Below are positions 45 to 63,269 of a DNA stretch of 64,000 bases, one piece after another. A program made the position numbers and the translations under genes. How positions within the stretch are numbered: the first letter of the stretch is position 1; every line of letters starts with the position of its first letter. The notes beneath the pieces were generated by a model. The model was not told the origin of the DNA. It did not search any database and worked only from the letters and a program-made list of their open reading frames with translations. Source of the stretch: a virus (Duplodnaviria; Caudoviricetes); IMG/VR virus record IMGVR_UViG_3300027917_000018, positions 1 to 64,000 of that record; one strand, given 5' to 3'.

Positions 45-614
45 ATGGAAAGCCGTCCCAAGGTTCAAGCGGGCGAACTTCCGAAAGAGCTGGTCGAAGG
101 CGTGGCACCCCAGCATAAGGCGCTGCTCGCAGGTTTGAAGGCCCAAGCATCTCAGGCTGCCGAAAGTGCGGATTTGTCGGCCAAGGCCGCCGAAAGCGCT
201 GTTCAGGCCCAGCTTGGCGATGAGGGTGTTCGCGAGTTCAGGCAGGAGAAGAAGACCCTCAAGAAAGTCGCCAAAAAGGTCGACACCAAGGTCGCCAAGC
301 CCGAGCCAACGCCGCCTGCCGCTGCTGTGGCTGAAGTTGCTGCTCCCGCCCAGGAGGAACAAGGTTTACCGGAGCCCGATCTTGGCGAGTCGCCGATCGT
401 CGGTGGTCTAGGCGATGAGGAGGCTGAAACGCAGGAGCCGCCGCTGCCGCCCGCCGCGAAGAAAAAGCGAGCCTCGAAGCCGAAAAAGAAAGTCCGGTGT
501 GAGGACTGCGGCCAGGAGTTCGACTACCCGGCGTGGTTGAAGCGCCACGTTCTGCGCCACCACCCCGAACGTTTACAGGCAGCCGCACCGCCCGCCGCCA
601 AGACAGCTCCGTAG
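45..614 (+). CDS. Pro/Ala/Glu/Lys-rich protein with C-terminal classical C2H2 zinc finger (probably 5'-truncated by the window)
   Basis: CEDCGQEFDYPAWLKRHVLRH fits C-x2-C-x3-F-x5-L-x2-H-x3-H. The frame is open with no stop back to position 3, so the true start may lie upstream. Confidence 0.7.
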   Translation: MESRPKVQAGELPKELVEGVAPQHKALLAGLKAQASQAAESADLSAKAAESAVQAQLGDEGVREFRQEKKTLKKVAKKVDTKVAKPEPTPPAAAVAEVAAPAQEEQGLPEPDLGESPIVGGLGDEEAETQEPPLPPAAKKKRASKPKKKVRCEDCGQEFDYPAWLKRHVLRHHPERLQAAAPPAAKTAP

Positions 615-624
615 ATACGGAGCT

Positions 625-840
625 ATGACCTACCGCGAAGCGTATTCCCTGCTGGAGCTTTTCGTTCAGCGCTGCTCCAGGCGCGCCCTTGCTGATCCAT
701 GCAACGCTAGAGCCTGGGAACGCGCAGCGCACATGGAATTGGAATTGGTGCGCCAGGAGGCCCTTAAAGAGGTTCCGCAGAGCCACAAGCCTCCAAAAAG
801 CGTGGACGACGAGGCGAATTCACAGGTTGGAGGTAGTTAA
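625..840 (+). CDS. hypothetical protein
   Basis: 71-aa ORF that fills the gap between flanking + strand genes. Confidence 0.55.
   Translation: MTYREAYSLLELFVQRCSRRALADPCNARAWERAAHMELELVRQEALKEVPQSHKPPKSVDDEANSQVGGS
834..840 (+). promoter_or_regulatory. TAGTTA-class start-proximal motif (gp13)
   Basis: TAGTTAA 3 nt before ATG 844. Confidence 0.55.
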
Positions 841-843
841 GGC

Positions 844-1617
844 ATGAGCTATTTCGGCCCAAGCAGTATCGCTTCTGATCCGGTCACGACGAGTGCCGAC
901 TCGCCGGATTCGCTGCCGATGTCCGGCTTCACGCAGGATCAGCTGGCCGACTACATTTTTCGCCAGTTGGGCGCTCCGACGTGGAACGTGGAACTGACCA
1001 AGCAACAGGTGCTTGATGGGATCAACGACGCCATGCGTCTGTTGAGTCAGTGGTGCCCGAGCTTTCAGGTGGCCCAATTCATCCTCGTGCGGGGCCAGTT
1101 CAAGTACCTGGAAAACGTAAACGTCGAACAGGGCGTGATCGACGTTCAGTTTGTCGAGCCCAATCCGGTGCCGACGGAGATTTTCTACGGAAACCTGATT
1201 AACCCGGCACCGCTGTTCAGACTTGGCCTCGACGAATACGACATTTTCCTCCGGTGGCGCAAGACCTGGCAGCGCGTGACGAGCGTGCGCCCCGACTGGT
1301 TCTACGATGAGGTCCGTCGGACGCTTTACATCCACAACCCAATCGAGCGGTACCAAGCCGCTGTTTTCTACTACGGTAACTGGACGGACATCTCGAAGGT
1401 GCCGTCGCATTACGCCCAGTGGCTCAAGGACTACGCCCTGGAGGCGTCGCGCTTCTTGCTGGGTGAGGTCTGGATGAAGTTCTCCGGGGCTATTCCGGGG
1501 CCGCTTCAAAATCTCCAGCTCGACCAGGCCAAACGGAATCTGGCGGCGGAACGCCTCAAGGAGCTGCGCGAGCAGATCAAGGGAATGCAGCGCGCCGCGC
1601 CGATCATGATTGATTAG
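844..1617 (+). CDS. gp13: neck/head-tail adaptor protein, T4 gp13-like
   Basis: QLADYIFRQLGAPTWNVELTKQQVLDGINDAM resembles the gp13-family N-terminus (L.DYI.R.LGAP..NVELT..Q+.D.I..A). Confidence 0.8.
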   Translation: MSYFGPSSIASDPVTTSADSPDSLPMSGFTQDQLADYIFRQLGAPTWNVELTKQQVLDGINDAMRLLSQWCPSFQVAQFILVRGQFKYLENVNVEQGVIDVQFVEPNPVPTEIFYGNLINPAPLFRLGLDEYDIFLRWRKTWQRVTSVRPDWFYDEVRRTLYIHNPIERYQAAVFYYGNWTDISKVPSHYAQWLKDYALEASRFLLGEVWMKFSGAIPGPLQNLQLDQAKRNLAAERLKELREQIKGMQRAAPIMID

Positions 1618-2924
1618 TGCTCGCCGAGCACCGGGCCAATACCTGGCTTCTCGTTTACCAGCACGTCGCCAAGCCGCCGAAGCTCCTCCAGCTTTTCTTC
1701 AGGCGAGTTCAAGCCTCCGATCGCCGTATAGACGACCATTGCCTCCTTGGAGCCGCTGTAAATGCCCCGGTGAACCATGCTGCCAGGCTTCAAGAGCCGT
1801 GTCAGCTGGTCGAACGCCTGGTCCAGGTGCTCGTGCGGGACCGAGCCGAGAATGGTGCGGCTGGCAATCACCACCGCTGCGCCGAGCGATCCGCTGCGCA
1901 GGTCCACGCCGCCGGAAAGGATGTTCTGCTTGAGATTTTCCCGGAGCGCGAAGCTGATCGCGGCAGCTTCCATCCATTTGGCGACCGGGGTGGCCCCAAA
2001 GACGATCATGCCGCTGTCCAGAATGGTTTTGAAGTCGTTCGGATCAAACGCCGTGTAGGACGACGCCTGCATGCAGACCGTGTTGAACAGATCGAACAGC
2101 GAACAGATGCTCATGTTGGCCCGCTGCCAAAACGGGTCGATGGCCAGGCCGGGGTACAGGGCACTGATGCGCTCGTTGTCGACCACGATCAGCGGCGAAA
2201 CGTAGCCTTTATCCACCAGCTCGCGCAGTTCGCGCAGGACCCAGTAGGCATTGGCGTTGACGCGCTTGCCTTCGGTGACTTTGGGCAGGGCCAGGACGAC
2301 GCCAACTTTGTCACTTGCGCACTTGTTGGCGATCTGAAGCTCGCGGGCGACGTGGACAAGCCCGACGACTGATCCCGCTCCAGTGCCGCCACCGGCTCCG
2401 GCGCAGATGACGGTTCGGTCATAAACCGGCCCGAAGCATCGGCGCATGAAGTCCAGCACATCCTCGCGCCGATCATGGAATATCTTGGCCGCAGCGGTGG
2501 GGTCCTTACCTGCGCCGCCGTCGCCGATCGCCATTTTATTGGGCTCCGGTAGCTTCAGGGTTGTTAGGTCCTGCTTGGCCGTGTTGATTGCGCAAACGCG
2601 CCGGTAACCAAGCTGGTAAAAGGTCTGCGCCAGGCGTGATCCGCCTTGGCCCGCGCCGATAAAGGCGAACCGGAAAGCGGTTTTCTTGCCATCGGCAATC
2701 TCGACGCGTTCCTGGATTTCCGGCATTGGAATGTCCGGCATCTCCACATCATAGGCGGCGTCAACGGGCTCCGGCTGGGCCGTATCCTCGACCGCAGGGG
2801 CGGGCTCTTGGACCGCTTCTTGAGTCTCTGGAGCGGACGCAGTGATTTCGGCAGTCTGCGGAGCCGTTGTTCCAGGGGCGGGAGCCGGATGCGGCATCGC
2901 TTCAATTTTCTTCTCTTCGCTCAT
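1614..2924 (-). CDS. tubulin/FtsZ-family GTPase (PhuZ/TubZ-like)
   Basis: Nucleotide-binding motifs FIGAGQGGSRLA, AINT, GAGKD and tubulin signature GAGGGTGAG; T7-loop-like FDPND; ~75-aa acidic/Pro-rich N-terminal extension. Confidence 0.9.
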   Translation of the reverse strand: MSEEKKIEAMPHPAPAPGTTAPQTAEITASAPETQEAVQEPAPAVEDTAQPEPVDAAYDVEMPDIPMPEIQERVEIADGKKTAFRFAFIGAGQGGSRLAQTFYQLGYRRVCAINTAKQDLTTLKLPEPNKMAIGDGGAGKDPTAAAKIFHDRREDVLDFMRRCFGPVYDRTVICAGAGGGTGAGSVVGLVHVARELQIANKCASDKVGVVLALPKVTEGKRVNANAYWVLRELRELVDKGYVSPLIVVDNERISALYPGLAIDPFWQRANMSICSLFDLFNTVCMQASSYTAFDPNDFKTILDSGMIVFGATPVAKWMEAAAISFALRENLKQNILSGGVDLRSGSLGAAVVIASRTILGSVPHEHLDQAFDQLTRLLKPGSMVHRGIYSGSKEAMVVYTAIGGLNSPEEKLEELRRLGDVLVNEKPGIGPVLGEH

Positions 2925-2926
2925 AA

Positions 2927-3292
2927 TCAGTTCGTTTCTCCGGTGTCTTTTATGACCTCAACGGCTCGGTCGTCCCAAAGTTCGGTCATGCCGGGGTCCT
3001 TCTCGTTGGTGACCTCCAGGTCGCCGAGACCGTGCTTCTTGAGCCACGCTTTGATCGGCGCAAGGTTCTTCTTTTCGGAGGCTCGCGCCGTGAAAATCTT
3101 TACCGTCTTTCCGGCCTTGCGCCAACGGCGTATGCGTTCGGCCATCTTGGCTACCGGCGGCCCGATCTTTTCAGGATCAAAAGTCCCTTTCACCGTTTTG
3201 GCCAGCGTGCCATCCAAATCGACGCCGATCCACGGCTCGATCTTTTTCTCTAGCAAATCACTGGCTAGTCGATAGCTCTCTTCGTAACGCAT
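2927..3292 (-). CDS. HAD-superfamily phosphatase-like protein
   Basis: HAD motif I IGVDLDGT, motif II IFTAR, C-terminal WDD. Start moved to the ATG at 3292 because the longer ORF overlaps the upstream gene. Confidence 0.75.
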   Translation of the reverse strand: MRYEESYRLASDLLEKKIEPWIGVDLDGTLAKTVKGTFDPEKIGPPVAKMAERIRRWRKAGKTVKIFTARASEKKNLAPIKAWLKKHGLGDLEVTNEKDPGMTELWDDRAVEVIKDTGETN

Positions 3293-3297
3293 TTTGT

Positions 3298-3576
3298 TTA
3301 CGTTTTTAAGTCGCAAGCCACCAGCCGCGCCGTCCGGTCTTCCGGCAGGACAAAAACGGCCAGACTGCGAACCTCGGCGTCGACGTTGGTCGCTTCGGTC
3401 TCGTCGATTTCCCTGCATTCCACAGGGATGTCCTGCCAGATCGGGCGCAGGCTACGCTTGACCGCCAGAGCCAGTGCCGCCAGCGGCGTCACGACTATCC
3501 GAGCTGGTCTGCGCTTGTGCTTCGCCTCGAACTGGTTCAGCAACTGGCTGAGCACCTTCTCCGCTGTTTGATTCAT
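3298..3576 (-). CDS. hypothetical protein
   Basis: 92-aa ORF with protein-like composition, ending just before the HAD start. Confidence 0.55.
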   Translation of the reverse strand: MNQTAEKVLSQLLNQFEAKHKRRPARIVVTPLAALALAVKRSLRPIWQDIPVECREIDETEATNVDAEVRSLAVFVLPEDRTARLVACDLKT

Positions 3577-3736
3577 GTCTGGTGGCCATCAGCTCGTCGG
3601 CGTGCTTAAGCAGATGGCCGGTCAAAGCTAAATACTCTTGGAGCAGCCCCGCCATGCCGATAAGCGGCGAGACCTGGCTGCTGAGCTGGGCCGCCTTGAG
3701 CTTCAAGGCCATGTGGGTTTGTTGCGTTTTGTCCAT
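3452..3736 (-). CDS. hypothetical protein (overlaps the previous ORF by 125 nt)
   Basis: ATG divergent from 3756 with a GTTCTAA motif upstream; amphipathic N-terminal half. Confidence 0.4.
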   Translation of the reverse strand: MDKTQQTHMALKLKAAQLSSQVSPLIGMAGLLQEYLALTGHLLKHADELMATRHESNSGEGAQPVAEPVRGEAQAQTSSDSRDAAGGTGSGGQA

Positions 3737-3755
3737 TTCCGTTCTTTAGAACCGT

Positions 3756-5309
3756 ATGTCGCCAACTTTTTCGCTGATCTACACGAGCGTCCGGCCACAG
3801 ATGATTGGACCTATCCTCGCCACCTGGGTCGAACGCTGCGCCAACAAGGAAGCCATCGAAATCATTCTGACCGTCGACGGTCCAGATGAAGGCTCCAAAG
3901 CGGTGGCCGCCGACCTGGCCACCAAAATGCCCATGCTGCGCTGGTTTGAGCAGCCCGAGGGGCCGTTCAACTGCGTCAAGGGCTGGAACCTGGCAGCCTC
4001 GAAAGCCACCGGCAAAGTGTTCGTCCAGGTGACCGACGACATGATGCCGCCGCAGCACTGGGACGAGGAACTGCTGAAGCTTAAGCCCGAAGGGTGGATT
4101 GACGGCGAGTTCGCCGTTCACGTGGAGGACGGCTATGTCCACGACCTCATGGTCTTAGCTATCATCACCCGCAAGCGCTACGAGCGGTTCGGTTACTTCT
4201 TCTACCCGGATTACGAGAGCATGTTTTGCGACACCGAGCTGACCACAGTCGCCTACCGGGACAAGGTGGTCATCAACGCCAAGCACCTGCTCTTCGAGCA
4301 CATGCACCCGGACGCGCAAAAGCGTAAACGGGACAAGGTTGATCTGGTCCACGCGTCCAAGGAGCGCTGGGTGCGCGGCGAGACGCTTTTCAACCACCGC
4401 CGGGAACGCAATTTTCCAATCGATGTGGGACCCCAGGCGGACAAGACAGCCAAGCCGGTAGGCTACAAGTTTTGCGTTTACACTCAGGCCACCCGCGACG
4501 ATTTCTGCCTACTGGAGGTCGGCAAGCGCATGATGGAGGAAGGCGTCAACGATTTCTTCTTCAGTATTCCAGACGAGTACTGGGCGGGCCGCCCGACGCC
4601 GGAAGAAAACATGTCGCAGGTCGAGCAGGTTGCCCAGCAGTTGCGGCAGCTCGGGGCCAACGTGCGCACCATGCGCCATCCAGTCAGGAAGTACCGCTGG
4701 CCCGGCGACAGCCGGATTACAGTTGAGACCCGCGTGCGCAATGACGCTCTGGCTGAGATTCGTCGGGCAGGATTCGAGCATGTGCTGATCGTCGATGGGG
4801 ACGAGCTGTGGAAGCGCGGCACCCTGAACTACGTTAGAAAGGTTCTCGATGAGTGGCATCCGCTTTCCATCAACTGCCTCATGATCCCCGTCGTGGGCCT
4901 GCCAGGTTACCCCATCGACGGGGCTACCGATGTGGCCGTGATCTACCTTAACTCAAAGGTTCCCTTCAAGGAATGCCGCACGCCCCACGGTGATCAGTTT
5001 CGGCTGCAAATGCCACAGGTTGTCCACTTTACCGGCACCAGAAAGACGATGGAGGAAACGATCCAGAAGCATCTGGACAGCGGCCACTACGACGATCCCG
5101 AGTACGATTTCGACTACTGGATCAAAAACGTCCTGCCCAACATTAAGCCTGGCTATCGTCACACGTTCCCGGACGGCCAGGTCGGCATCCACATGTTCAA
5201 GCGCTATCAAATCTGGCCTTCTGTTCGGCACTGGATGCCGGAAGAGGTCACGCAGTTGCCGCAGGCGCTTCATCCCTATCTCGGTATCGAGCAGCCTGCG
5301 ACCCCGTGA
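3756..5309 (+). CDS. two-domain GT-A fold (GT2-like) glycosyltransferase
   Basis: SLIYTSVRP...ILTVDG...NCVKGWNLAA...VQVTDD...YESMFCDTEL; second domain with VLIVDGDELW (DxD). Confidence 0.8.
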   Translation: MSPTFSLIYTSVRPQMIGPILATWVERCANKEAIEIILTVDGPDEGSKAVAADLATKMPMLRWFEQPEGPFNCVKGWNLAASKATGKVFVQVTDDMMPPQHWDEELLKLKPEGWIDGEFAVHVEDGYVHDLMVLAIITRKRYERFGYFFYPDYESMFCDTELTTVAYRDKVVINAKHLLFEHMHPDAQKRKRDKVDLVHASKERWVRGETLFNHRRERNFPIDVGPQADKTAKPVGYKFCVYTQATRDDFCLLEVGKRMMEEGVNDFFFSIPDEYWAGRPTPEENMSQVEQVAQQLRQLGANVRTMRHPVRKYRWPGDSRITVETRVRNDALAEIRRAGFEHVLIVDGDELWKRGTLNYVRKVLDEWHPLSINCLMIPVVGLPGYPIDGATDVAVIYLNSKVPFKECRTPHGDQFRLQMPQVVHFTGTRKTMEETIQKHLDSGHYDDPEYDFDYWIKNVLPNIKPGYRHTFPDGQVGIHMFKRYQIWPSVRHWMPEEVTQLPQALHPYLGIEQPATP

Positions 5310-5310
5310 G

Positions 5311-5640
5311 ATGCTTCGGCCAAAATACCCGAATCGGAGAACTTACCGGCCCAACTTCCCGCTGGCCAAGGCCGACGAGGAGCTGCGGCTTTTGCACGGG
5401 ACAATTACGGGCCGCGACGCAGAGCAGGCAATCCTGGACTATCTGCGTGAGCACCTGGGCGAACCCATCTTGTCGTGGAAGGTCTGCTACGAGCTATGCG
5501 TAAGCCGCCGACCTTTGATTCGCAAAGAGCAGGTTTTCTACCGGAGGCAGATGACGCGGCTGATAGCCGAACGGAAGGTGGTGAGGTACCACCGGGGCCG
5601 TTTCCGGGACAAAGTCAGGATTTCTGAGGCTTGGGTTTAG
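5311..5640 (+). CDS. basic hypothetical protein, possibly winged-helix DNA-binding
   Basis: Arg-rich 109-aa ORF from the ATG at 5311, directly after the GT stop. Confidence 0.55.
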   Translation: MLRPKYPNRRTYRPNFPLAKADEELRLLHGTITGRDAEQAILDYLREHLGEPILSWKVCYELCVSRRPLIRKEQVFYRRQMTRLIAERKVVRYHRGRFRDKVRISEAWV

Positions 5641-5642
5641 CT

Positions 5643-6902
5643 ATGCAATCGATTCAAAACACACAATGGCAGGTGGCGACGTTCAATGCGCCCGTCGTTT
5701 TCAACCGCGACCGCGAGGAAACCTGGTTCATGAACCCGGTTCGCCGCTACGTCTTCAACGGGCACCACCTTGCCAAGCTACAAGAGCACATCGAAACGGT
5801 CTCCGATATACGCGGTTGCGCGGACTATAGACCGCTCCAGGCGGGTGCGGCGTTGAACGGCAGGCGTATTTTCGTCGAGCGTTTTCGGGATCGCGGAATT
5901 GGCGATCTGCTCTTTTTGACCGGCCCGTTATCCTTGATGCAGCACCTGAGCGGCGGTACGGCCAAGTTTCACGTCTACGCTTTTGCGGATCGCGGCCAGG
6001 TGCTTCAGCACAGCCCGTTTTTAGAGCACGGCACGGTGTTTGTTGGCCCCACGCACTACGACGACTTCAGGCATTATGCCTATCAGTGGCTCGTGGACAG
6101 CGCCACCGAGTCCTGCCAAGAAGGCGATCAGCACAACGTCTACGACGCGCTTTATGCTCAACTCGGAATGGACCCAAATAGGATCGAGCCGCGCTGGAAG
6201 CGGCCCGTAATGTCCATTCACCCCAGCGAGCTGGACGGTCTGAACCAATTCTTCTTTCGGCGCTGGCTTGACCGGCATATTGACCTACGGACTAGCGGCT
6301 ATTACGTCGTTGCTCCGTTTACCCATTCACCGATGCGCCTGCCCGGCTATCAGTTCTGGCAGACCGTGATCAAGGACCTGAGTCAAAGGCGGCCCGTAAT
6401 CGTGATCGGCAACCCCAAGGCCGGTATTCCACACATGGACATGGACCCAGCGGACTTTGTGGCCAGCCTCGATGAAATGGGCGAAAACGTAATCAACCTC
6501 ATCCCCGAAGACGTGAGCCCGACGCTCCGGTTCGTTTGCGTTTTGATCGCAAGCGCCAACTGCGTTGTTTGCCCGGATACCGGCCCGTTATACATCGCGC
6601 AGGCCAATCGGACGCCAGCCATCAGCATTTGGGGTCCACACGATCCACGCGTGCGCATCGGATACGACCAGGACTACATGGATTTGGCCATTTGGAAGCC
6701 CGATTCGTGCCTGTACGCGCCCTGTTTTTGTTTCGGATCGTTCCCCGAGCGAAAGTGCCCCGAGGGCGGCGGACAAAAAATCTGCGAGGTCATCAAGGCA
6801 GTCTCACCGAACGACGTTCTAGCTCTGTTGGAAAGGGTCGAGTTTCGCCACCCGAGGCAAATCGGCGTTTTGAAACCGCGACAACCTGAAAACGAGTCAT
6901 GA
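5643..6902 (+). CDS. GT9-like (heptosyltransferase-family, GT-B) glycosyltransferase
   Basis: RGIGDLLFLTG and VVCPDTGPLYIAQANRTPAISIWGPHDP match GT9 motifs (GIGD; DTGPxHxA.A...P.+.++GP..P). Confidence 0.8.
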   Translation: MQSIQNTQWQVATFNAPVVFNRDREETWFMNPVRRYVFNGHHLAKLQEHIETVSDIRGCADYRPLQAGAALNGRRIFVERFRDRGIGDLLFLTGPLSLMQHLSGGTAKFHVYAFADRGQVLQHSPFLEHGTVFVGPTHYDDFRHYAYQWLVDSATESCQEGDQHNVYDALYAQLGMDPNRIEPRWKRPVMSIHPSELDGLNQFFFRRWLDRHIDLRTSGYYVVAPFTHSPMRLPGYQFWQTVIKDLSQRRPVIVIGNPKAGIPHMDMDPADFVASLDEMGENVINLIPEDVSPTLRFVCVLIASANCVVCPDTGPLYIAQANRTPAISIWGPHDPRVRIGYDQDYMDLAIWKPDSCLYAPCFCFGSFPERKCPEGGGQKICEVIKAVSPNDVLALLERVEFRHPRQIGVLKPRQPENES

Positions 6903-7354
6903 GCAGAAGACAAGGCCGCACCATACCGCACACACCGGTCATCAAGATCGGCAACGTGACCGTCGACGTGGAGTACTGGCTGACGCTGGAATACCGCGAC
7001 ATCGGCGACGCCTCCGTGGACCTGCCATCGGTAATTGAGTGGTTCAATTACCAACACCAGGTCCATTTGGAGGAAAAGATGCAGACTGAGGGTGAACTGG
7101 CCAGGGCCAAGGCCGAAGCCTACTTCGCCCTCAAGGACGGCGAGTTCGTCCGCCGTGGCTACGGCCAGAAGCCCACGGAGGCTTCGTTGGACCACGCCGT
7201 TGAGCTGGACGATAAAGTCATGCGCCTTCGGGACAGGGTGGCCACGTTAACAGGTTGGGTTGATCGCTTCAGGAACATCCAAAAAAGTCTCCAGTTCAAG
7301 TTGGAGCTTGTCCGTTCTAACGAAGCGACACGCCGGAAAATCCTGGATAACTAG
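6899..7354 (+). CDS. UvsY-like recombination mediator
   Basis: Helical 151-aa protein with AEAY...KPTEASLDHAVELDDKV pattern, directly upstream of the SSB and RecA genes. Confidence 0.6.
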   Translation: MSRRQGRTIPHTPVIKIGNVTVDVEYWLTLEYRDIGDASVDLPSVIEWFNYQHQVHLEEKMQTEGELARAKAEAYFALKDGEFVRRGYGQKPTEASLDHAVELDDKVMRLRDRVATLTGWVDRFRNIQKSLQFKLELVRSNEATRRKILDN

Positions 7355-7389
7355 CGACGACCGGCCCGTAACAACGAAACAACGGACCT

Positions 7390-8883
7390 ATGAGCAAAAT
7401 CATCACAGCAGCAGACGACATTGAGAGGTTTCTCGATAGCGAGAAGGACTTCTCGGACAAGCTGACCGGAACCAAGGCGCTCCGCGTCAAACTCGAAGAA
7501 AACGGGGACGCATGGCTTGTGCGTTTCCTTCCAGTAGCCCTGGGCAAGAGCGGGCGCTGGTACATCCGCACAGCCAAGCATTGGTTTCGCCGCCGACCCG
7601 TTGTGTGCCCAAGGCACATGCCGGAAGATTTCGGCGGCGATCCGAACGCTGAGTGCCCGGTGTGCGATTTGTCCTCCGAGCTTCGGGACGAAACGCACGA
7701 GGAGCTGAACAACATCGGCTTCGAGATTCGGCCCACCCTCGCCTACCTGACGTACTGCTTGGTTTACAAAACCGAGACCCGGCGGGGTGGCATTCGGGAG
7801 ATGCGCCCGGAGGACATCCTGGTGCCGTGGGAATTTCAGCTCTACAAGGGCACCTTCGACGAGCTGAGCGACTATTATCGCCGTGGACGGACCGAATCCA
7901 GACCGCTCAGTGTTTTGGACCTCAAGCGCGGCAACGACTTTTGGGCCACCAAAACCAAGAAAGGCATCCGCCTCGACAAGGACGATCCAGGCCCTGCTTT
8001 CGCCAAAGACGTGTTTGAGGAGGCCATCAACGCTGTCTTCAGCGCGATCAAGGAGCCCAGGATCAAGCTGGACCCGCTGAAGGCACTGGAAACCTTTGCC
8101 CGCAAGTGCCGAGCGGAAGCCTACGGCGAGGGCGAACCGGAAAGCAGAACCCGCCGGGCTGGCCGTGCCTCCGGTTACGACGAAACGGACGAGGACGAGG
8201 GCAAGGGTCGTCACGGACGAGGTCGCCGGGGCGACGATGATGACGACGATCGTGGCAGCTCGCGTGGCCGCCATGACGACGAAGAGCGGTCGTCCAGGCG
8301 CTCGCGGGACGAGGAAGAGCCCGAAGACAGGGGTTCACGCCGCAGCCGACAGCGCGAGGAAGAGCCCGAAGACAGGGGTTCACGCCGCAGCCGACGGGAT
8401 GACGACGATCGTGGCAGCTCGCGTGGCCGCTCCGATTACCGAGCCGAAGACGACGAACCCCGTGGCCGTGGCCGTCGGGAAGACGATGACCGCCAGGAGC
8501 GTTCCAGCCGCCGAAGCCGTGAAGACGACGATCAGGTGCCTGGAGCGGAGGTTCCTCCAAAGACCGCTGAATCGGTTCGTTCCGGTAAAACGGCCAGGTC
8601 GGTCCGTGGGGAAGACGATGTTAACGAGGAAGAAGATAGCGGCGTGACCGAAGAGGACAAGGATCAGGCTCCGCCGCGCCGTGGTAAAATTCAAGGCGAC
8701 GAAGAGCCGCCGGAGGACGATCGCCGCGAGTCGGAAGGTGAGGCGGAAGAAGGCGCTGAACGTGACGAAGGCCAGGAAGACCAGGAAGACCGCCGCAGCA
8801 GTTCGGCAGGGTCCGTTGGTGGGCGCAGCGGAAGCCGTGGCAGCTCGCTTAAGGACCGTATCCGCCGAGTAACCAGGCACTAA
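7390..8883 (+). CDS. gp32-like single-stranded DNA-binding protein with long R/D/E/S-rich disordered tail
   Basis: VRFLP...HW...VCP...CPVC core typical of gp32-like SSBs; C-terminal ~250 aa are low complexity. Confidence 0.75.
   Translation: MSKIITAADDIERFLDSEKDFSDKLTGTKALRVKLEENGDAWLVRFLPVALGKSGRWYIRTAKHWFRRRPVVCPRHMPEDFGGDPNAECPVCDLSSELRDETHEELNNIGFEIRPTLAYLTYCLVYKTETRRGGIREMRPEDILVPWEFQLYKGTFDELSDYYRRGRTESRPLSVLDLKRGNDFWATKTKKGIRLDKDDPGPAFAKDVFEEAINAVFSAIKEPRIKLDPLKALETFARKCRAEAYGEGEPESRTRRAGRASGYDETDEDEGKGRHGRGRRGDDDDDDRGSSRGRHDDEERSSRRSRDEEEPEDRGSRRSRQREEEPEDRGSRRSRRDDDDRGSSRGRSDYRAEDDEPRGRGRREDDDRQERSSRRSREDDDQVPGAEVPPKTAESVRSGKTARSVRGEDDVNEEEDSGVTEEDKDQAPPRRGKIQGDEEPPEDDRRESEGEAEEGAERDEGQEDQEDRRSSSAGSVGGRSGSRGSSLKDRIRRVTRH
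8239..8430 (+). repeat. intragenic direct repeats in the SSB tail
   Basis: 40-bp gaggaagagcccgaagacaggggttcacgccgcagccgac at 8311 and 8356 (45-bp period), flanked by 33-bp gatgacgacgatcgtggcagctcgcgtggccgc at 8239 and 8398. Confidence 0.9.
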
Positions 8884-8901
8884 CCCTCAACCGACCGTCC
8901 T

Positions 8902-55857: not shown

Positions 55858-55876
55858 CAGCCTGTGGTTCAAAGCC

Positions 55877-56440
55877 ATGATCCAGGTTTTGACGGACGGG
55901 CCGCGCCATTCGCTGGTAAACCCGAGCCGCCTGTGGATTCTGGCCGAAGCATGCTCTTTGGTTCGGGGCCTTGTCGGCTGTGCCGTTGAATTTGGTGTTT
56001 ACCGGGGAGGCTCGGCCTGGTTCCTACGAAATGTGCTGCCATCCGACGTGGTTCTCCATCTGTACGATAGTTTTCAGGGCCTGCCAAAGCCATCGCCCCA
56101 CGACGGGTTTCACGAGGGCGATTTCGGGGACACGTCCCTCGATCAGATCAACGACTTGGCGCAAAAGCCCAACGTGGTAATTCATACTGGCGTGTGGAGC
56201 GCCGACGTGGAGGTCCCTGAATCGGTTTGTTTTGCCCATCTGGACTGCGACATTTACCCAAGCGCCAAGGATGCGCTCGCCGCCCTTTGGCCGAAGATGC
56301 TGCCCGGCGGACTGATTGTCTGCGACGACTACGGTTTTCCGAATTGCCAGGGCGTTTACAAAGCTGTAAACGAATTTATCGCCAGCTACGGTGTCCGCCC
56401 CATGCGGCTTGAAACAGGCCAATGCCTGCTGTTCCGATGA
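55877..56440 (+). CDS. TylF/MycF-family O-methyltransferase
   Basis: VEFGVYRGGS...YDSFQGLP...FAHLDCDIY...PGGLIVCDDYG. Confidence 0.88.
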   Translation: MIQVLTDGPRHSLVNPSRLWILAEACSLVRGLVGCAVEFGVYRGGSAWFLRNVLPSDVVLHLYDSFQGLPKPSPHDGFHEGDFGDTSLDQINDLAQKPNVVIHTGVWSADVEVPESVCFAHLDCDIYPSAKDALAALWPKMLPGGLIVCDDYGFPNCQGVYKAVNEFIASYGVRPMRLETGQCLLFR

Positions 56441-57366
56441 AAAGGCAAAAGATCGATGATCGGTTTCCAAGCAAAGTGATGTACAGGACGCATCCGTGCG
56501 TTTTTGAGCGCTCAATCGCGCCCGAGCCTGGAACCGCGTGGGCGGTGCGGGGACCCAGGCGGCTGATGACTTACCGCGTAGAGCTTGAGCCCCTGAACCA
56601 GCGCAGCTCGACGTGCCTGTGTCCTCTCGACGATAACTGGACGCCCATGTACCATTTGGAGCACCACCTGGATTTCGGTCTTCCGCGCAATGAACAGCGC
56701 ATGGCCATCGAGGAGGACTGCCGGTTGTTCAATTTTTGCGGCAGGGTTTGGTTCAACATCACCAACCGCAACGATACGTTCCTGGGCGAGCTGGATTGGC
56801 AGGCCCACGACCCGAAGGTGGTCGGCTGCGGCATTCTCGCGTTTCCGTTTGAGGTCGGCAGCACGGAAAAGAACTGGATGTTCTTTGAACAGGGTGGCCT
56901 GCTCTACGGGGTCAGATGGGTTCACGCCCACGTCGTTCATCGGATTTACCCCGACTTCCAGAAAGGTCACGCGGTTAGCGAGCCTATCGTCCACGAATAC
57001 CGGCTGGACTGGCCGCATGGCCGTCCCCACGGCGGCACGTCGCCAGTTGCGATCGGCGACGAGTACCTCAGCCTTTTTCAGTCCAGCAAGCTCGCTGCGG
57101 TAAATGGCCGCAAAGACTACTACGTTGGCGTTTACGCTTTTGAGGCCAAGCCACCTTTTAGGGTTACGCGTGTGCCAAAAGAGCCTTTGATTTCTCCGCT
57201 GACCTGGCCCGAACATTCTGTCGGGTTCAATGGGCACAACACTTTCTTTCCGTTGGGCCTTGCACGAGAGAACGACACCTGGAGGGTCAGTCTTGGGGAT
57301 GACCGCGCCATGTGGCTGCTCGAATACAGCACCGATGAACTCCTCGACGCAACCAAACCTGTTTGA
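56437..57366 (+). CDS. beta-propeller glycosidase/phosphorylase-like protein
   Basis: EDCRLF...EKNWMFF...HGGT.PV...YY.G.Y.F...PPF.; ATGA-coupled to the upstream TylF gene. Confidence 0.65.
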   Translation: MKRQKIDDRFPSKVMYRTHPCVFERSIAPEPGTAWAVRGPRRLMTYRVELEPLNQRSSTCLCPLDDNWTPMYHLEHHLDFGLPRNEQRMAIEEDCRLFNFCGRVWFNITNRNDTFLGELDWQAHDPKVVGCGILAFPFEVGSTEKNWMFFEQGGLLYGVRWVHAHVVHRIYPDFQKGHAVSEPIVHEYRLDWPHGRPHGGTSPVAIGDEYLSLFQSSKLAAVNGRKDYYVGVYAFEAKPPFRVTRVPKEPLISPLTWPEHSVGFNGHNTFFPLGLARENDTWRVSLGDDRAMWLLEYSTDELLDATKPV

Positions 57367-57958
57367 GCTGATGGAGCAGACGATGGGAATGCTCTGCTTT
57401 CCCAGGGCCACCCATCTGGCGCATTACCTTCTTCAGACGGCCACGGTTCCAGGAGCGGTGGCTGAATTTGGCTGCCACCAGGGCCGTACGGCGGCCTTTA
57501 TGACGGCTCTGACCAAGAAGCACGTTTACGTTTACGATAGCTTTGCCGGGCTGCCGCCACCGTCGGAGCATGACAGGCCATCGGAGGTCTTCCACGAGGG
57601 CGCGATGGCTATAAGCCCGCAAGAGCTGGTAGACCTATTCAAGAGACTCGGGCTGCGCACACCGATCATTGAGCCCGGCTTCTTCAAGGACCTCCAGCCC
57701 CACCAGTTGCCCAAGGAAATCGCTTTTGCCCACTTGGACGGCGACTTCTACGAAAGCATTGCGGGGCCGCTGTACGTGGTCTGGCCGAGGCTGTCGCCCG
57801 GAGGCTACATCGTGGTCGACGATTGGGACTGGGACCAGCTACCGGGCGTCACGGACGCGGTCAAGGCGTGGTCGAAAGATATAGGGATCAAGCCGGAGGT
57901 TCAGTACGGCACGGACGGGGCAGGATGCCACCAGGCGGTGCTGCACAAACCTAGTTAG
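57335..57958 (+). CDS. second TylF/MycF-family O-methyltransferase
   Basis: AEFGCHQG...YDSFAGLP...GFF...FAHLDGDFY...PGGYIVVDDW. Confidence 0.88.
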   Translation: MNSSTQPNLFELMEQTMGMLCFPRATHLAHYLLQTATVPGAVAEFGCHQGRTAAFMTALTKKHVYVYDSFAGLPPPSEHDRPSEVFHEGAMAISPQELVDLFKRLGLRTPIIEPGFFKDLQPHQLPKEIAFAHLDGDFYESIAGPLYVVWPRLSPGGYIVVDDWDWDQLPGVTDAVKAWSKDIGIKPEVQYGTDGAGCHQAVLHKPS

Positions 57959-58145
57959 GGACCGGTACGGCCTTAAGCTGAACCGGTTCAGGCTCGGCGG
58001 GCTTTGATTCGGCAAGGTGCTTCATCACGTCCACGCTAACCTGAGCTGTCCGGTCCTCGACCAGCTGCTGGCCCGATTCCTCGACCGGGCGCGTTTCGGG
58101 CTCGAACTGACGGGCCAGGTCGATATGCTCATGTAGGCGACTCAT
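57951..58145 (-). CDS. small hypothetical protein
   Basis: 64-aa ORF preceded by TAGTTAA. Confidence 0.5.
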   Translation of the reverse strand: MSRLHEHIDLARQFEPETRPVEESGQQLVEDRTAQVSVDVMKHLAESKPAEPEPVQLKAVPVPN

Positions 58146-58162
58146 CGTTCTTAACTACGATG
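58143..58162. promoter_or_regulatory. symmetric bidirectional start junction
   Basis: CATCGT-TCTTAACT-ACGATG: reads GTTCTTA on plus and GTAGTTAA on minus. Confidence 0.6.
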
Positions 58163-59221
58163 ACTGGCGATCAGCTACGCGAAACGGTCGAGCAGCTCTT
58201 TCAGCCGGTGCCGCACCGCAGCACCGCGACGGAGCTGGCTTTCGTCTGCCCGCAGCCCGGATGCACGGATTCTTCCGGCCACCGATCCGTTAACCTGAAG
58301 ACCGGCCAGACCAACTGCTGGATTTGCGGGGTCGGCGGCGATTTTGTGCGCTGGGCACAGCGGCTTGGCTACGCGGTCACGGAGGAACACCGGGTTACCA
58401 AGCCGATGGAGGAGGCTGAGTTCGACCGCATCAGCCGGACTCCGGTCAATGACTTGCCGGTGGTCACCAATATCAAACTGCCGAAGGGTTTCAGGCTTTG
58501 CCGGGACTACCCGAACAGCGTTTACACGGAATTCATCGCCGAAATGGCCGAGCGCAAGGGACTGAAAATCGATGACCTCATGTCCGTGAGTGTGGGCTTT
58601 ACGAAGACCGATCCGTTATGGGAGCCTTACGCGATCTTCCCCAGTTTCGAGTATGACAAGGTCGTTTACTATCAAGGCCGGACCTATGTCGACGAGCCCG
58701 ACCAGAAAACCAAGAAGTTCCCCAGCCGCCGGGAAGTTCCCTACAGCGCCAAGTACTGGGTCTACGGCATTGACGAACTGCGCGCCGAGCGGCCCGAGAC
58801 CGTGCTGGTCATGGAATCCATTTTGAACGTGCTGACCATGCGGCGGTTCATGCGCCGTCACAAAATCAAAGGCGTCGGTACAGCCTGTGTTTTCAGCCAC
58901 AGCATCAGCGAGCCGCAGGCCACCAAACTCAGGCAGCTGGAATTCCTGAAGGAGGTTGTGCTTCTATTCGACCACGACGCGACTCGTCGCGGCTGGCAGA
59001 AATCGCCCAGGCTCGGCAACAAGTTCAACCTGACGATCGCGGACATGCCGCCTGGCCCCGGCGGCGAGAAGAATGACCCGAACGACGATCCAGAGGGTGC
59101 GTGGCGGGCTTTTGAAAAGCGCGAGCACGTGAATACTGTTTTGGCTGCTGGTGCCGACATGTTCGATTTCGACCGGGAACCGCTGGACGCTGATTCGTTT
59201 ACGCGCCGACGCCGTTCTTAG
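58160..59221 (+). CDS. DNA primase (Zn-binding + Toprim)
   Basis: CPQPGC...NCWIC Zn module, YYQGR, Toprim VMESILN and LFDHD. Confidence 0.85.
   Translation: MTGDQLRETVEQLFQPVPHRSTATELAFVCPQPGCTDSSGHRSVNLKTGQTNCWICGVGGDFVRWAQRLGYAVTEEHRVTKPMEEAEFDRISRTPVNDLPVVTNIKLPKGFRLCRDYPNSVYTEFIAEMAERKGLKIDDLMSVSVGFTKTDPLWEPYAIFPSFEYDKVVYYQGRTYVDEPDQKTKKFPSRREVPYSAKYWVYGIDELRAERPETVLVMESILNVLTMRRFMRRHKIKGVGTACVFSHSISEPQATKLRQLEFLKEVVLLFDHDATRRGWQKSPRLGNKFNLTIADMPPGPGGEKNDPNDDPEGAWRAFEKREHVNTVLAAGADMFDFDREPLDADSFTRRRRS
59214..59220 (+). promoter_or_regulatory. GTTCTT-class motif (GroES)
   Basis: GTTCTTA 5 nt before ATG 59226. Confidence 0.5.
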
Positions 59222-59225
59222 GGGC

Positions 59226-59849
59226 ATGAAGCAAATCAAAGCGCTGTTTGGCAACCGTCTTGCCGTTCAACTGGCCGAAGAGGAATACGAGGGGCTGATT
59301 GTGACCGCTCCGACCGCGATGCGGATGCACGTGCTGGCCAAAGTCATTGCCAAGGGGCCGGAGGTCAAAGGCATTGAGGTCGGCGACATCGTGTTTTACC
59401 AGAAGGTGATTCACCCGTTCGGGAACGCGCAAACTGACCCGTTCGGTGACGCCAAGCGCTACGACCTTAATGGAACGCCCACTTTCATCGAGATGGCCGG
59501 TGACATGATCGCCAAACTCACGGCGCAAAAGGTCAAATTGGAGCATTTTCAGGCCATCGGGGATTGGTGCCTCTGCCGTAAGAAAGTGATCGAACCGAGC
59601 AAGCTGATCGTTGTGCCCGACACCGCCGAGGCTACGAACCAGGACATCATGGTCGAGTTCCACGTGGAACAAGTTGGTGAGTCGGTAAACATGGACTTGC
59701 CGCATGGGGCGGAGCTGATTCTGGACCGGGGACGCGCCAACCCGCTACAAATCGAGCGCGAGGACTTCGTCTACGTCCACAAGAACTTCATCCTGGGCGT
59801 TCTTGGGTATCCGACGGACACAACAGAGCCTGAAGCGACCGGTAGTTAG
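59226..59849 (+). CDS. tandem double-domain GroES-like co-chaperonin
   Basis: Domain 1: LFGNRLAV...GLIV...AKVIAKGP...IEVGDIVFY. Domain 2: AIGDWCLCR...SKLIVVPD...V.QVG...FV.V....ILGVL. Confidence 0.75.
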   Translation: MKQIKALFGNRLAVQLAEEEYEGLIVTAPTAMRMHVLAKVIAKGPEVKGIEVGDIVFYQKVIHPFGNAQTDPFGDAKRYDLNGTPTFIEMAGDMIAKLTAQKVKLEHFQAIGDWCLCRKKVIEPSKLIVVPDTAEATNQDIMVEFHVEQVGESVNMDLPHGAELILDRGRANPLQIEREDFVYVHKNFILGVLGYPTDTTEPEATGS

Positions 59850-59852
59850 GAC

Positions 59853-62800
59853 GTGGTAACGCTCACGCTTAACGGCGCTCCAGCACCAACAAGCTACGCT
59901 CTAGGGTCCGTTTACACGCTTCTGGCGCTGGTTGACGCGCAGGAGCCGCTTTCGGTTGAATGGTCGGTTGCCCGCCAGGGCGAGCCGCCCATCGCCGGTA
60001 CCGGTCCCATTCGTTTTGAGCCGGTCGCCGCCGAGACTCACTATCTTCACGTCGCTGCCGTTGGCCAGGACGGTGTCCTCCAGCAAACCGTTTTCCAGCT
60101 TCAGGTCGTCGCTGCCGGGGCTTCTGCCATGTCGCCCACGATCCAGTGGTCGACGACCAGCCCCGCCATCCGCCAGACAGTTGTGGCAACCATTTCGGCG
60201 GCCAATCCCAGCACTGGGTCACGGCGTCCGCCGCGCAACATCGCCTGGACAGTCTACCTGAATGGCACACCCATCCTGGGCGGTGAGGGAGCCCAAACCG
60301 GCTTTCCGATCCTCTATCCTGGCGTTTACCGGCTCGTGGCAACGCTTGTGGACGAGGGAGGCAATTCGGCCACGGCGGACAGCTCGATCGTGGTTCCGGG
60401 TGGTTTTGAGCTTCAGACCGCCGTTGTGCCAAAACAGCCCACTGGGACTCTGTACTACTTGGGCAGCGTTTATTCTGCCACGGTCGAGGGCTACGCACAG
60501 CTGGCCACCGAGCTGCCTTACCTTGTCATTAGCGCCAACAGCGCGGTCCACCTGCTGCCGGGCACGACGCATGTCATCGCCGAAGTTGAGGAAGGCGGCG
60601 TTGTTCAAGATGAAGTCGTGCTCAGGTCCAGGCTGGGAAACTGGTCCCTGGTTGGCGGCCCAGGCGGCTTGACCACTGAGTCCCTGTTTTACGATTACGT
60701 CCCGGCAGTGCCGCTGCCCGCCCCGCACGACCGCCTGTTCCGCTACACGCTCGACCAATGGAAAGTGGGCGGCACTTCCGTTTCCGACTATCGGTTTCGG
60801 GTCCGGTTCAAGTGCTACCGCGAGGGCCAGAAGCTTTACGAGTACAGCGCCTGCCCGTACGCCAACTACCCAGGCGGTGAGGCGCTTCGCGAAAAGCGGA
60901 TGGTGGCGTTGATCACGAACGTCGATTTCAGGCTGGATGCCGAAAGCCCGGACAACCGCCTCGGTTCGACGGACACGATCACGTACACGACACCCAATCA
61001 GATCACGCTGGAAGGCAACTTTACGCCGGACGGTGCGCCCTACGGTGTCGCCTACCGCGAGGAAGACCACGGGTTCACGGCGCAGAACATCATCGCCAAC
61101 TACGAGGCCGCCGGGCACCCGGACATCAAAACCCACGCTGTTTACGGAATACCGGGCGTCCGGCCCGCCCTGCTGGACTTCACACAGCCTGGCCTGCCAA
61201 GGATCATTCAGTACGCCAAGCGCTTGCACGGTAAGCTGGTGGTCTACATGGCGGGCGGAGGCGTGTCCTACGACACGGTCATTTGGGCTCGAATTTATAC
61301 CGGCAAGTCGCCGGGTTACCAGGTGGTCCGTCTGCGCTGCGCCGACGTGCTCTACAATGGCTCCTTGGAGCGCTACGTGAAAGTTGCCGAAGCGGACATT
61401 GACCTCAGCGACTTCGAGTTCGGCAAAGTCGGCTTGGCCATTGATTTGACGCTGGATGAGGCCGAGGCGCACACGACGCCCTACTATCGCACCGAGGATA
61501 CCGACGATGCTTGGGAGACGGAGGAGGGCGGCTTTTTCTGGCAAGTGGAAGAGTCGGGCACCGACGTAAATTACCAGCCGCCTGAAATTGCGCCGGAAAG
61601 GGTCTACGCGACCTCGGGCAGCCAGGCCGTTCACTACGAGGGAGCCTGCTACTATAGGCCGGTTCCCGTGGCGGTCTTCGACGGCACCCACGCCGTCGCG
61701 GGCACAGTCATCGAGAGCTGTGCCGATCCCGTTTGCGGCGACCGTGGCGTTTACTGCTACACCGACGGAACGAATTTTGCCCAAGTCATTCAGCCGCTGG
61801 ATCACCCCGCGCCCTACTTGGCGTTTGCCAGCGACCAGGCTCATTGTTGGTACGACCCGTACTTCGTTGCCATTGCCGGGGACGGGACCGTGGCGATCAA
61901 CGAGCCCTACCTGCCGTATTCGGGGACAAGCGGCTGCGGCATAGGTTACGCTTACGCCAGCTGCGGATCACTCGCCGCCATCGCCGTCATTTACCCGGCG
62001 GCGGCCTCACCACACAGCTTTGTGGCCTACGGCAGCAACTGCTACGCGCTGAGTGGCAGCGTCGCGGACCTGCGCCCTTACGAGACTGTGGCTTTGGTGG
62101 CGGACGTGACTGCCGTAGCGAGCTGCGATGACGTAGCCTGTACGGGCAGCGATGCCTCGGGTGACTCGGCCTGGTACCTCGACCAGCACGGCCAGCGGGT
62201 CCAGGTCTACTTCCCGCATTTGAATCAGGGAATTCCCAGCTACGGGGCGGCACAGGAGAGGATGAGCCCCGGCTATGGGAGGACGCCGCCGGGCCGCCTC
62301 TACTACAATTCCTGGGCGCAGCCGATCTGGCCCATAATGACGGCGCAGGAGGCCGCCACGGTGGACTTCGTAATGACCCCGCTGGGCTGGACCCGGAAGC
62401 TTTACGTGCGCCGTGGCACTACCGTTACCGAGTACTCTTATGGCCTTGGCACGGTGCGCAAACGCATCGATTTGCAAGCCGGGGACCACGTCTTTCTTCA
62501 GTTCGGCTCCAGGTCGACCAATCTGGAAGGCTACGTGGACTACGCCAAGCGCGTAACGCTGCCCGCGTATTACGACAGCGCAGTCTTGGACACCGGTACG
62601 GCCTCCTCAATCAGGGCTCTTGGCTTCTGCGGCTTCTCCCAGGTCGAGGATTACGTTTTCTTCGGCACGCTGCCGGTAGAAACCGCCATGTCCCTGCCCA
62701 ATCCCGACAGTATCGTCACTGTCACTGGAAGCGGAGCGGAGGAGCAGCTTCTCGTCAGAACTTTTGCCTACGGCGATCGGTACTACCCGCTGTCCTGGCC

Positions 62801-63269
62801 AGCTTACGGCGGCGAGGTCCTCAACATGCCCGTGACCTTCAAATTTTACGCCGGGCGGAACATCGCGGGGCGGCATGGTGAAATGGATGTCTGGCTCGAC
62901 CTGGATCAGAGCCTTCCCGGATTCCTCAAAGTCTCGCGCTATCACGTTTTGACCGCCGATGCGGGCCAATATCGCGTCACGGCGCAAATAGGCGACATCA
63001 ACCGGCGCGGTTTGCGAGTTTCCTCCAGCACCGAGGCGAATGAGCTGCTCTTGCCGCGTGTCTACGCAACGACAGAAGGGCAAACGATCGTGGTCGTTGG
63101 CGGTGGCACCGAGATTTACCACGATGGAAATGTTTACGCCGTAGTTGGAACTGACACAGGCATCTCGACCCAAGTCTACACAGCTCAGAGCGTATTTAGT
63201 GGTGGTGCCTGGACCACTGCGGATGGTTCGGCGTGGCTGACATCAGGAACGTTGCCTTGGCTCTCATGA
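59853..63269 (+). CDS. large putative virion (tail/baseplate) protein with PKD/Ig-like N-terminus and Cys-rich middle
   Basis: W.V.LNG...G...F...PG.Y.L..T..D.GN...D Ig/PKD-like pattern; Tyr/Gly/Thr-rich; repeated CY...SC...C units. Confidence 0.65.
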   Translation: MVTLTLNGAPAPTSYALGSVYTLLALVDAQEPLSVEWSVARQGEPPIAGTGPIRFEPVAAETHYLHVAAVGQDGVLQQTVFQLQVVAAGASAMSPTIQWSTTSPAIRQTVVATISAANPSTGSRRPPRNIAWTVYLNGTPILGGEGAQTGFPILYPGVYRLVATLVDEGGNSATADSSIVVPGGFELQTAVVPKQPTGTLYYLGSVYSATVEGYAQLATELPYLVISANSAVHLLPGTTHVIAEVEEGGVVQDEVVLRSRLGNWSLVGGPGGLTTESLFYDYVPAVPLPAPHDRLFRYTLDQWKVGGTSVSDYRFRVRFKCYREGQKLYEYSACPYANYPGGEALREKRMVALITNVDFRLDAESPDNRLGSTDTITYTTPNQITLEGNFTPDGAPYGVAYREEDHGFTAQNIIANYEAAGHPDIKTHAVYGIPGVRPALLDFTQPGLPRIIQYAKRLHGKLVVYMAGGGVSYDTVIWARIYTGKSPGYQVVRLRCADVLYNGSLERYVKVAEADIDLSDFEFGKVGLAIDLTLDEAEAHTTPYYRTEDTDDAWETEEGGFFWQVEESGTDVNYQPPEIAPERVYATSGSQAVHYEGACYYRPVPVAVFDGTHAVAGTVIESCADPVCGDRGVYCYTDGTNFAQVIQPLDHPAPYLAFASDQAHCWYDPYFVAIAGDGTVAINEPYLPYSGTSGCGIGYAYASCGSLAAIAVIYPAAASPHSFVAYGSNCYALSGSVADLRPYETVALVADVTAVASCDDVACTGSDASGDSAWYLDQHGQRVQVYFPHLNQGIPSYGAAQERMSPGYGRTPPGRLYYNSWAQPIWPIMTAQEAATVDFVMTPLGWTRKLYVRRGTTVTEYSYGLGTVRKRIDLQAGDHVFLQFGSRSTNLEGYVDYAKRVTLPAYYDSAVLDTGTASSIRALGFCGFSQVEDYVFFGTLPVETAMSLPNPDSIVTVTGSGAEEQLLVRTFAYGDRYYPLSWPAYGGEVLNMPVTFKFYAGRNIAGRHGEMDVWLDLDQSLPGFLKVSRYHVLTADAGQYRVTAQIGDINRRGLRVSSSTEANELLLPRVYATTEGQTIVVVGGGTEIYHDGNVYAVVGTDTGISTQVYTAQSVFSGGAWTTADGSAWLTSGTLPWLS

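Follow-up and report, generated by a model that had tools for sequence, protein, structure and literature searches.

A near-palindromic octamer imposed on synonymous codon choice in a T4-like jumbo phage and its relatives

A close described counterpart of the DNA word reported here is HIP1 (GCGATCGC), the highly iterated palindrome of cyanobacterial genomes. We analyzed the first 64,000 nucleotides (hereafter the window) of a linear phage record of 202,975 bp in IMG/VR (hereafter G000), in which the hexamer GTTTAC and its complement GTAAAC, the core of the octamer YGTTTACR, are strongly over-represented. Both HIP1 and the phage word are 8 bp long, occur about once per kilobase and are accommodated through codon choice in all frames; in both, density is conserved but positions are not, lineage-specific variant words exist, and no function is known. 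In contrast to HIP1, the phage word resides in phage genomes and not in cells, is non-palindromic in G000 and palindromic in the relatives G015, G018, G011 and G005, has no consistently present cognate methylase, and is depleted in a sister clade. A second counterpart is GTWWAC, the target of M.BceJIV in Burkholderia, which shares the GT-WW-AC core and likewise includes palindromic and non-palindromic members. Unlike in the M.BceJIV case, GTTAAC lies outside the enriched set, Y/R flanks are added, the four WW variants behave differently, the phage methylase is missing in most relatives, and there is no link to Burkholderiaceae. A full-text literature search for GTTTAC and phage over-representation gave no match, and we found no description of a hyper-abundant word conserved across a lytic jumbo phage family.

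The G000 record has an estimated completeness of 89% and a GC content of 59.8% (59.4% in the window). Crude gene calling gave 262 genes (92.5% coding), on which all in-gene null models rest. The genes include those for a T4-type sheath, a prohead protease, an SbcC-like nuclease subunit, a RecA/UvsX-like protein, SSB, a DNA polymerase and a DnaB-like helicase. No close relative of G000 was found among the GenBank phages searched, and relatives were gathered using three baits: the sheath protein, a conserved sigma-like protein and a methylase. Expected counts were taken from Markov models of orders 0–3 (plus 4), synonymous shuffling within genes, permutation of whole codons, and a shuffle barring 59 eliminated hexamers. 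Hereafter, the TT form denotes YGTTTACR including its AA complement, and the AT form denotes YGTATACR. The sites under study are as follows.

364..63407, no strand assigned: GTTTAC/GTAAAC array, 85 sites in the window (52 + 33) of 264 genome-wide

An earlier reading made from the letters of the window (the sequence-only reading) had put the hexamer at about 80 copies against 15–25 expected. The count was 85, and Markov models of orders 0–3 predicted 19.2, 14.7, 17.7 and 28.0 copies on both strands (observed/expected ratio (O/E) 3.0–5.8). GTAAAC/GTTTAC was the rank-1 over-represented hexamer of the window at each of these orders, and order 4 removed the GTTTAC excess only because its pentamers belong to the motif itself. 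The window holds 52 copies of GTTTAC, 33 of GTAAAC, 18 of CGTTTACG and 12 of CGTAAACG, and the palindromes GTTAAC and GTATAC, which had been thought much less frequent, numbered 7 and 0. For the full 8-mer of the CGTTTACG type, 96 copies were counted against a first-order expectation of 4.7, an approximately 20-fold excess.

The excess was not produced by codon usage. In synonymous shuffles of the window genes, sense-strand GTTTAC was expected 18.6 ± 3.7 times (52 observed) and GTAAAC 4.8 ± 2.0 times (19 observed). Across the genome, the corresponding sense counts were 160 versus 52.7 ± 6.3 (z-score (z) 17) for GTTTAC and 67 versus 14.9 ± 3.4 (z 15) for GTAAAC, and those of CGTTTACG and CGTAAACG were 55 versus 8.8 and 30 versus 2.4. 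The sequence-only reading had proposed a codon-preserving shuffle as the check, with an O/E near 1 as the refuting outcome; the excess stood at z 15–17, and O/E was approximately 3–4.5 for the hexamer and 6–13 for the 8-mer. Whole-codon permutation agreed with the synonymous shuffle. Barring the 59 eliminated hexamers gave expectations of 48.8 GTTTAC and 13.8 GTAAAC, far below the observed counts; thus, the GTTTAC excess is not a by-product of avoidance. When all hexamers were scored by the synonymous null, GTAAAC/GTTTAC (227 versus 68.4, z 22) was the only one with an O/E above 2, the best unrelated hexamer reaching 1.7. Outside the gene calls, 34 GTTTAC/GTAAAC sites were present against approximately 6 expected. 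The GTTTAC excess is therefore real, and YGTTTACR is placed about once per kilobase in G000 through synonymous codon choice.

Codon choice is biased toward the word in every frame able to accommodate it. No codon pair in G000 exceeds expectation by more than GTT-TAC (108 versus 30.7) and GTA-AAC (47 versus 7.4), which are reverse complements of each other; GTT-TAC encodes 62% of Val-Tyr pairs. The preference for T before TAC and for A before AAC is confined to Val codons and is absent from the other four-fold families, indicating that it is not a general codon-context effect. The dipeptides VY, VN and FT were not enriched in G000. The motif had also been suggested to force rare codons, with CGT-TTA named at four positions; in-frame CGT-TTA was found at all four sites, the first two (570 and 13360) exactly as given and the third and fourth at 14137 and 15378 instead of 14147 and 15379. 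These and one further case are listed below.

570..577, + strand: full 8-mer in frame 1 (CGT-TTA-CG), using the rare codons CGT and TTA
13360, 14137, 15378: similar CGT-TTA cases, in frame in the gene calls
57524..57535, + strand: two copies directly abutting each other (GTTTACGTTTAC), in a stretch left uncalled by the gene caller

All five possible classes of frame and orientation were enriched (GTTTAC 3.0-, 11.3- and 2.5-fold; GTAAAC 5.2- and 3.5-fold), with frame-1 GTTTAC observed 10 times in the genome against 0.9 expected. Because enrichment is seen in every frame, in both orientations and in non-coding DNA, the signal acts on double-stranded DNA and not on protein or mRNA. The proposal that the motif is a DNA-level word of the HIP1, Chi or uptake-sequence kind, imposed on codon choice, was thus borne out by the shuffles and in all frames.

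We defined the extent of the word from the 264 sites of G000. Changing any of the six core positions reduced the count to background. C precedes the core in 178/264 sites and G follows it in 150/264; flank variants tallied together with the core changes gave C 96, T 38, G 12 and A 4 at position −1, and G 96, A 56, C 17 and T 9 at position +6. Y..R flanks accompany 198 of the 264 sites (75%; range 73–78%), compared with 15–35% for other GTNNAC words. The true word is Y-GTTTAC-R, a near-palindrome with symmetric Y/R flanks. Within ±60 nt of the sites, nothing else was conserved apart from codon periodicity, with no extended motif and no fixed site spacing. The strand-bias and spacing analyses that had been suggested showed that site orientation tracks the gene strand no further than coding opportunity would lead one to expect and never switches polarity, and that gaps between sites are exponential and Poisson-like (coefficient of variation 0.98), with even density along G000 and inside genes. 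Positional conservation of sites was rejected: the closest relative keeps only 5 of 22 frame-0 sites although density is held, and identity at four-fold codons is 0.44, corresponding to synonymous saturation.

The same word or its palindromic twin YGTATACR is kept across a radiation of related phages, which defines the family Y-GT(AT/TT/AA)AC-R. In synonymous shuffles, YGT(TT/AA)ACR was enriched 3.1–4.6-fold in G001, G002, G003, G019 and G022, where GTATAC was at 0, and YGTATACR was enriched 5.8-fold in G015 (64 versus 11.1, z 19.8), where the TT form was not enriched. The ratios of the AT and TT forms were 6.9 and 3.4 in G018, 4.9 and 3.2 in G005, and 2.6 and 1.6 in G011; the AT form exceeded the TT form wherever both are allowed. 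Enrichment was weak in G006 and G008, and the whole family was depleted in coding DNA in an outgroup clade (G010, G024 and G026). GTTAAC had an O/E of 0.33–1.2 in every genome examined and was never enriched. The relation to GTWWAC suggested by the sequence-only reading thus holds for YGTATACR and YGTTTACR, which are enriched in relatives, but not for GTTAAC. Whole-record counts were 100 YGTATACR in G015 and 104 YGTTTACR in G019, with controls at 0 and 18. Relationships were taken from a tree of the conserved sigma-like protein. Sigma-like proteins of G000 are encoded in the following region.

11847..14283: sigma-like proteins

In the tree, the positive lineages form one unresolved radiation and the G010 clade is a long-branched outgroup. 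The positive lineages differ in GC content (49–61%) and in the palindromes that they have purged, suggesting different hosts.

Other words drew attention in the same set of genomes. TAACTA/TAGTTA has 18 copies on both strands of the window against 2.3–4.3 expected from Markov models (4–8-fold) and is among the top hexamers in relatives L004–L006 as well. CCCGGC/GCCGGG is approximately 5-fold over the second-order expectation in L016 (G004 and G011; 41 versus 7.6 in 20 kb). CGAGCC, GCGAGC and AGCACC have about 50 copies each in L112/L113 against about 12 expected, probably within one repetitive gene. TGTTTACA is strongly strand-skewed in G017 (45 forward, 9 reverse) and G023 (23 forward, 47 reverse) in raw counts that combine gene-strand effects, promoter use and intragenic enrichment.

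The enrichment of GTTTAC stands beside extensive word loss in the same genome. Of the 64 possible 6-bp palindromes, about 32 occur 0–1 times in G000, and the others have an O/E near 1. With the codon-preserving null, GCCGGC (0 versus 176), CGGCCG (0 versus 155), GTATAC (0 versus 16.5) and GTTAAC (10 versus 27.5) were below expectation; GGCGCC, CCGCGG, CCCGGG, CTGCAG and GGATCC are also missing. Asymmetric words have been lost too, namely CCCCC, CCCAGA, GAGATC, AGATCC and CACCTC, with CCCCC at 1 copy against approximately 140 (Markov) to 700 (first-order) expected. The depletion typical of restriction avoidance is shown only by the palindromic kin GTATAC and GTTAAC, whereas GTTTAC itself is enriched. 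Purged palindrome sets differ among relatives, and the G010 clade purges barely any (5–6 of 64). GTATAC and about 30 other palindromes were probably purged under restriction pressure.

YGTTTACR is thus under selection, as a member of a motif family that is conserved among relatives while its sites turn over, and a DNA-reading factor must select for it in this phage and in its relatives. As to the nature of this factor, we tentatively favor a non-destructive, symmetric, phage-encoded DNA-binding factor that reads the sites, with an HU/IHF-like protein as a possible helper; this is our leading reading, though one that could well be wrong. Selection on synonymous sites and non-coding DNA would keep about one word per kilobase across this radiation of uncultured T4-like jumbo phages. 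The reader would most likely be a sequence-specific, two-fold symmetric (dimeric) binder of double-stranded DNA that prefers the half-site YGTA and tolerates YGTT, so that the perfect palindrome YGTATACR would be its best site, and G000, having purged GTATAC, would carry the one-off form GTTTAC/GTAAAC instead. The ranking GTA·TAC > GTT·TAC > GTT·AAC is as expected from additive half-site preferences of a symmetric reader. Such a reader, presumably phage-encoded and binding without cutting, should prefer CGTTTACG or TGTATACA over CGTTAACG or core-mutated duplexes. The sites may serve as a distributed tag by which phage DNA is marked or organized, be it to compact it, to make packaging specific or to protect it; a phage-encoded binding-site array is our best guess on function. 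The putative helper, which might raise the usable site density, is encoded by the following gene.

14641..14931, + strand: HU/IHF-family gene, 96 aa (Pfam Bac_DNA_binding, E 2e-18), candidate reader or co-factor

Its product is about equally similar to IHF and HU chains, and the gene was the only one found whose syntenic presence or absence tracks motif density among relatives. Median TT + AT densities were 0.68 sites/kb in 19 lineage clusters with the gene and 0.24 in 13 without it (Mann-Whitney p 0.0003 over the 32 clusters, uncorrected for phylogeny), and a control word showed no difference. A nucleoid protein had been among the readers proposed from the sequence; the correlation of the HU/IHF-like gene with density agrees with this, but the gene is linked to the motif by correlation and is not required. 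A described relative is SPO1 TF1, which, like the 14641..14931 product, is a phage-encoded type II (HU-family) DNA-binding protein. TF1 prefers hydroxymethyluracil DNA, and we know of no short strict word for it. It occupies approximately 37 bp (PMC2528193). Unlike TF1 with its preferred sites, the HU-motif link in these phages is a correlation only.

Several observations weigh against a symmetric phage-encoded reader assisted by the HU/IHF-like protein. No HU gene was found in G015 (82% complete) or G016, which have 100 and 55 YGTATACR sites, and lineages without the gene are still approximately 2–3-fold enriched. HU/IHF-family proteins usually read DNA shape and not a strict 6-bp core. A dimeric reader should weakly accept GTTAAC, yet this word ranges from depletion to neutrality and shows no mild enrichment. 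No sequence-specific DNA binder was detected when about 50 G000 proteins were scanned with PHROG and Pfam. Taken alone, the sequence would also fit a bias driven by repair or a universal host factor.

Other candidate genes were discarded. When G000 proteins were screened for presence or absence in relatives with and without the motif, g132 proved misleading, as it shares only a capsid-like fragment, and g59, g61 and g68 were tail-module clade markers confounded by phylogeny. A tubulin-like gene was rejected as the reader as it was found only in G000 and G011.

1614..2924, − strand: tubulin/FtsZ-family gene (Pfam Tubulin, E 1.6e-9), among 17 relatives present only in G011 (57% identity)

The best-surviving rival to a symmetric binding factor, which we nevertheless consider unlikely, is methylation of the sites by a DNA methyltransferase, which in most lineages would be encoded by the host; a methylation-linked repair bias or a methylation-dependent function would create or maintain their abundance, as proposed for HIP1. 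Among restriction-modification systems, specificity for a degenerate 8-bp palindrome flanked by Y/R is typical. GTWWAC is a documented N6-methyladenine target of the orphan methylase M.BceJIV (PMC11380664), and HIP variants co-occur with cognate methylases (PMC4390886). The sequence-only reading had pointed to a methyltransferase encoded in the window as a possible cause.

29166..29912, + strand: beta-class DNA methyltransferase, N6_N4 family (PF01555), in a low-GC island

A homologue with 33% identity and an SPPY motif, encoded in the same capsid-to-tape-measure interval of the G004/G011 lineage (L094:1408-2250, − strand), speaks for a methyltransferase; like the G000 enzyme, it resembles N4-cytosine methylases. 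The catalytic motif of the G000 enzyme reads MPPW, where (S/D/N)PP(Y/F/W) is usual, and among solved structures its best match (E 1e-11) is an N4-cytosine methylase. Its match to chain 8urk, which we take to be M.BceJIV, had an E of 1.7e-6 over the C-terminal cofactor region only; it is no closer to M.BceJIV than to other beta-class enzymes, and nearer to N4-cytosine enzymes. No close homologue of it was found in IMG/VR, and the Dam family (PF02086) was not detected in G000. PF01555 was absent from 13 relatives, including the motif-bearing G019 (96% complete), G023 (100%), G017 (98%) and G015 (82%), in a search for this one phage-encoded family. Phages with equally similar methylases (G012–G014) showed no enrichment of the motif. 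As near-complete motif-bearing relatives do without the family and contigs with distant homologues are not enriched, the methylase at 29166..29912 was rejected as the cause. GTTAAC, a full member of GTWWAC, is not enriched either, and since the hosts look diverse, a shared host methylase would be an extra assumption.

A further methyltransferase domain was noted in the window. The 577-aa protein encoded at 53246-54979 (+ strand) combines a class I S-adenosylmethionine methyltransferase domain with a weak match to a Lar-like zinc ribbon. Several relatives conserve only about 290 aa at its N-terminus, and G006, G008 and G010 lack the gene at the syntenic position.

Rather less probable is a promoter origin, in which GTTTAC would be a stand-alone −35-like element read by an RNA polymerase holoenzyme (host sigma-70 or phage sigma-like) and multiplied to capture or hold polymerase. 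Early promoters of T4 have the identical hexamer as their −35 region (PMC1524935), and the outgroup clade has 4–5 promoters of the form TGTTTACA-N16-18-GGTATACT, in which TGTTTACA serves as the −35 element and the ATG follows within approximately 7–10 nt. These promoters contain both enriched hexamers, and the words are otherwise depleted in genes of that clade. However, the GTATAC flanks in the outgroup promoter are G..T and not Y..R, and no bipartite promoter of this type was found in G000, G019, G015 or G018. TATAAT with up to one mismatch was located 16–18 nt from 0 of the 264 G000 sites, TANNNT occurred at the control rate, and TTTACA-N16-18-TATACT had no match in G000. In contrast to T4, the word occurs here at 264 sites, which lie inside genes in both orientations, evenly spread there, and have no −10 partner; thus, the sites are not promoters, though RNA polymerase stays a conceivable reader. 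The outgroup promoters themselves, in G010 and G026 (for example at G010 positions 11561, 15998, 46862 and 35718; loci L197–L199), combine a T4-like −35 element with near-leaderless transcripts.

Slightly less probable still is a Chi-like role, in which a helicase-nuclease (RecBCD/AddAB of the host, or an enzyme of the phage) that meets the word would change over from degrading DNA to recombination, so that the unmodified phage DNA would be protected. The density of GTTTAC resembles that of the Chi-rich phages LLS (one Chi per 1.86 kb) and P1 (one per 1.9 kb), which likewise carry a short word far over expectation (PMC12315714), and end protection would be useful to a phage that uses site avoidance and not base modification. 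Chi is asymmetric, orientation-biased and host-defined. Our word is quasi-palindromic, with the true palindrome preferred in relatives, a preference that recognition of a single strand would leave unexplained. Enrichment is seen in both sense orientations, orientation follows the gene strand, and no polarity switch exists in G000 or in the terminal-repeat genome G023. Moreover, Chi-rich phages typically lack recombination genes, whereas G000 has RecA/UvsX-like, SSB and SbcC-like genes, and the same family spans lineages that differ in GC content and purged sites and apparently in host. The recombination role raised by the sequence-only reading is therefore disfavored.

It appears very improbable that the word has no function and reflects a neutral bias in mutation or repair, specific to sequence context and stemming from the machinery that replicates the phage. 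A genome-wide drive would produce the observed uniform Poisson spread, the turnover of sites and their confinement to synonymous positions. Against it stand the strict specificity and the approximately 20-fold 8-mer enrichment, the switching of lineages between GTATAC and GTTTAC in step with GTATAC purging, and the active depletion of the words in the sister clade; together, these point to selection in both directions.

Finally, the idea that the excess arises artefactually from the composition of amino acids or codons, or follows from the avoidance of other words, can be dismissed for practical purposes: Val-Tyr pairs are frequent and GTT is used moderately often, but the synonymous, codon-permutation and constraint-preserving shuffles all miss the counts, non-coding DNA is enriched too, and codon, amino-acid and dinucleotide explanations were rejected by all shuffles and by the Val-only context effect.

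Hyper-abundant short words (HIP1, Chi, uptake sequences) are seldom encountered, and behind each of them stands a machine that reads DNA. In the phage group described here, a natural experiment is provided by lineages in which the palindrome is enriched, the one-off variant is enriched after a purge, or the family is depleted, and this contrast makes the reader discoverable by comparative genomics or pull-down. The strength and direction of the effects show that synonymous sites of phages can be under strong DNA-level selection, both positive and negative. A wider possibility, which we consider doubtful, is that T4-like jumbo phages with unmodified DNA carry Y-GT(AT/TT/AA)AC-R as a 'self' tag that a conserved phage dimer reads with the assistance of an HU/IHF-like bender. 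Own and host DNA would then be told apart for packaging, protection or compaction, and the word would co-evolve with host restriction, the palindrome being swapped for the one-off variant where GTATAC is restricted. The finding may bear on how T4-like phages without modified bases discriminate between self and host DNA.

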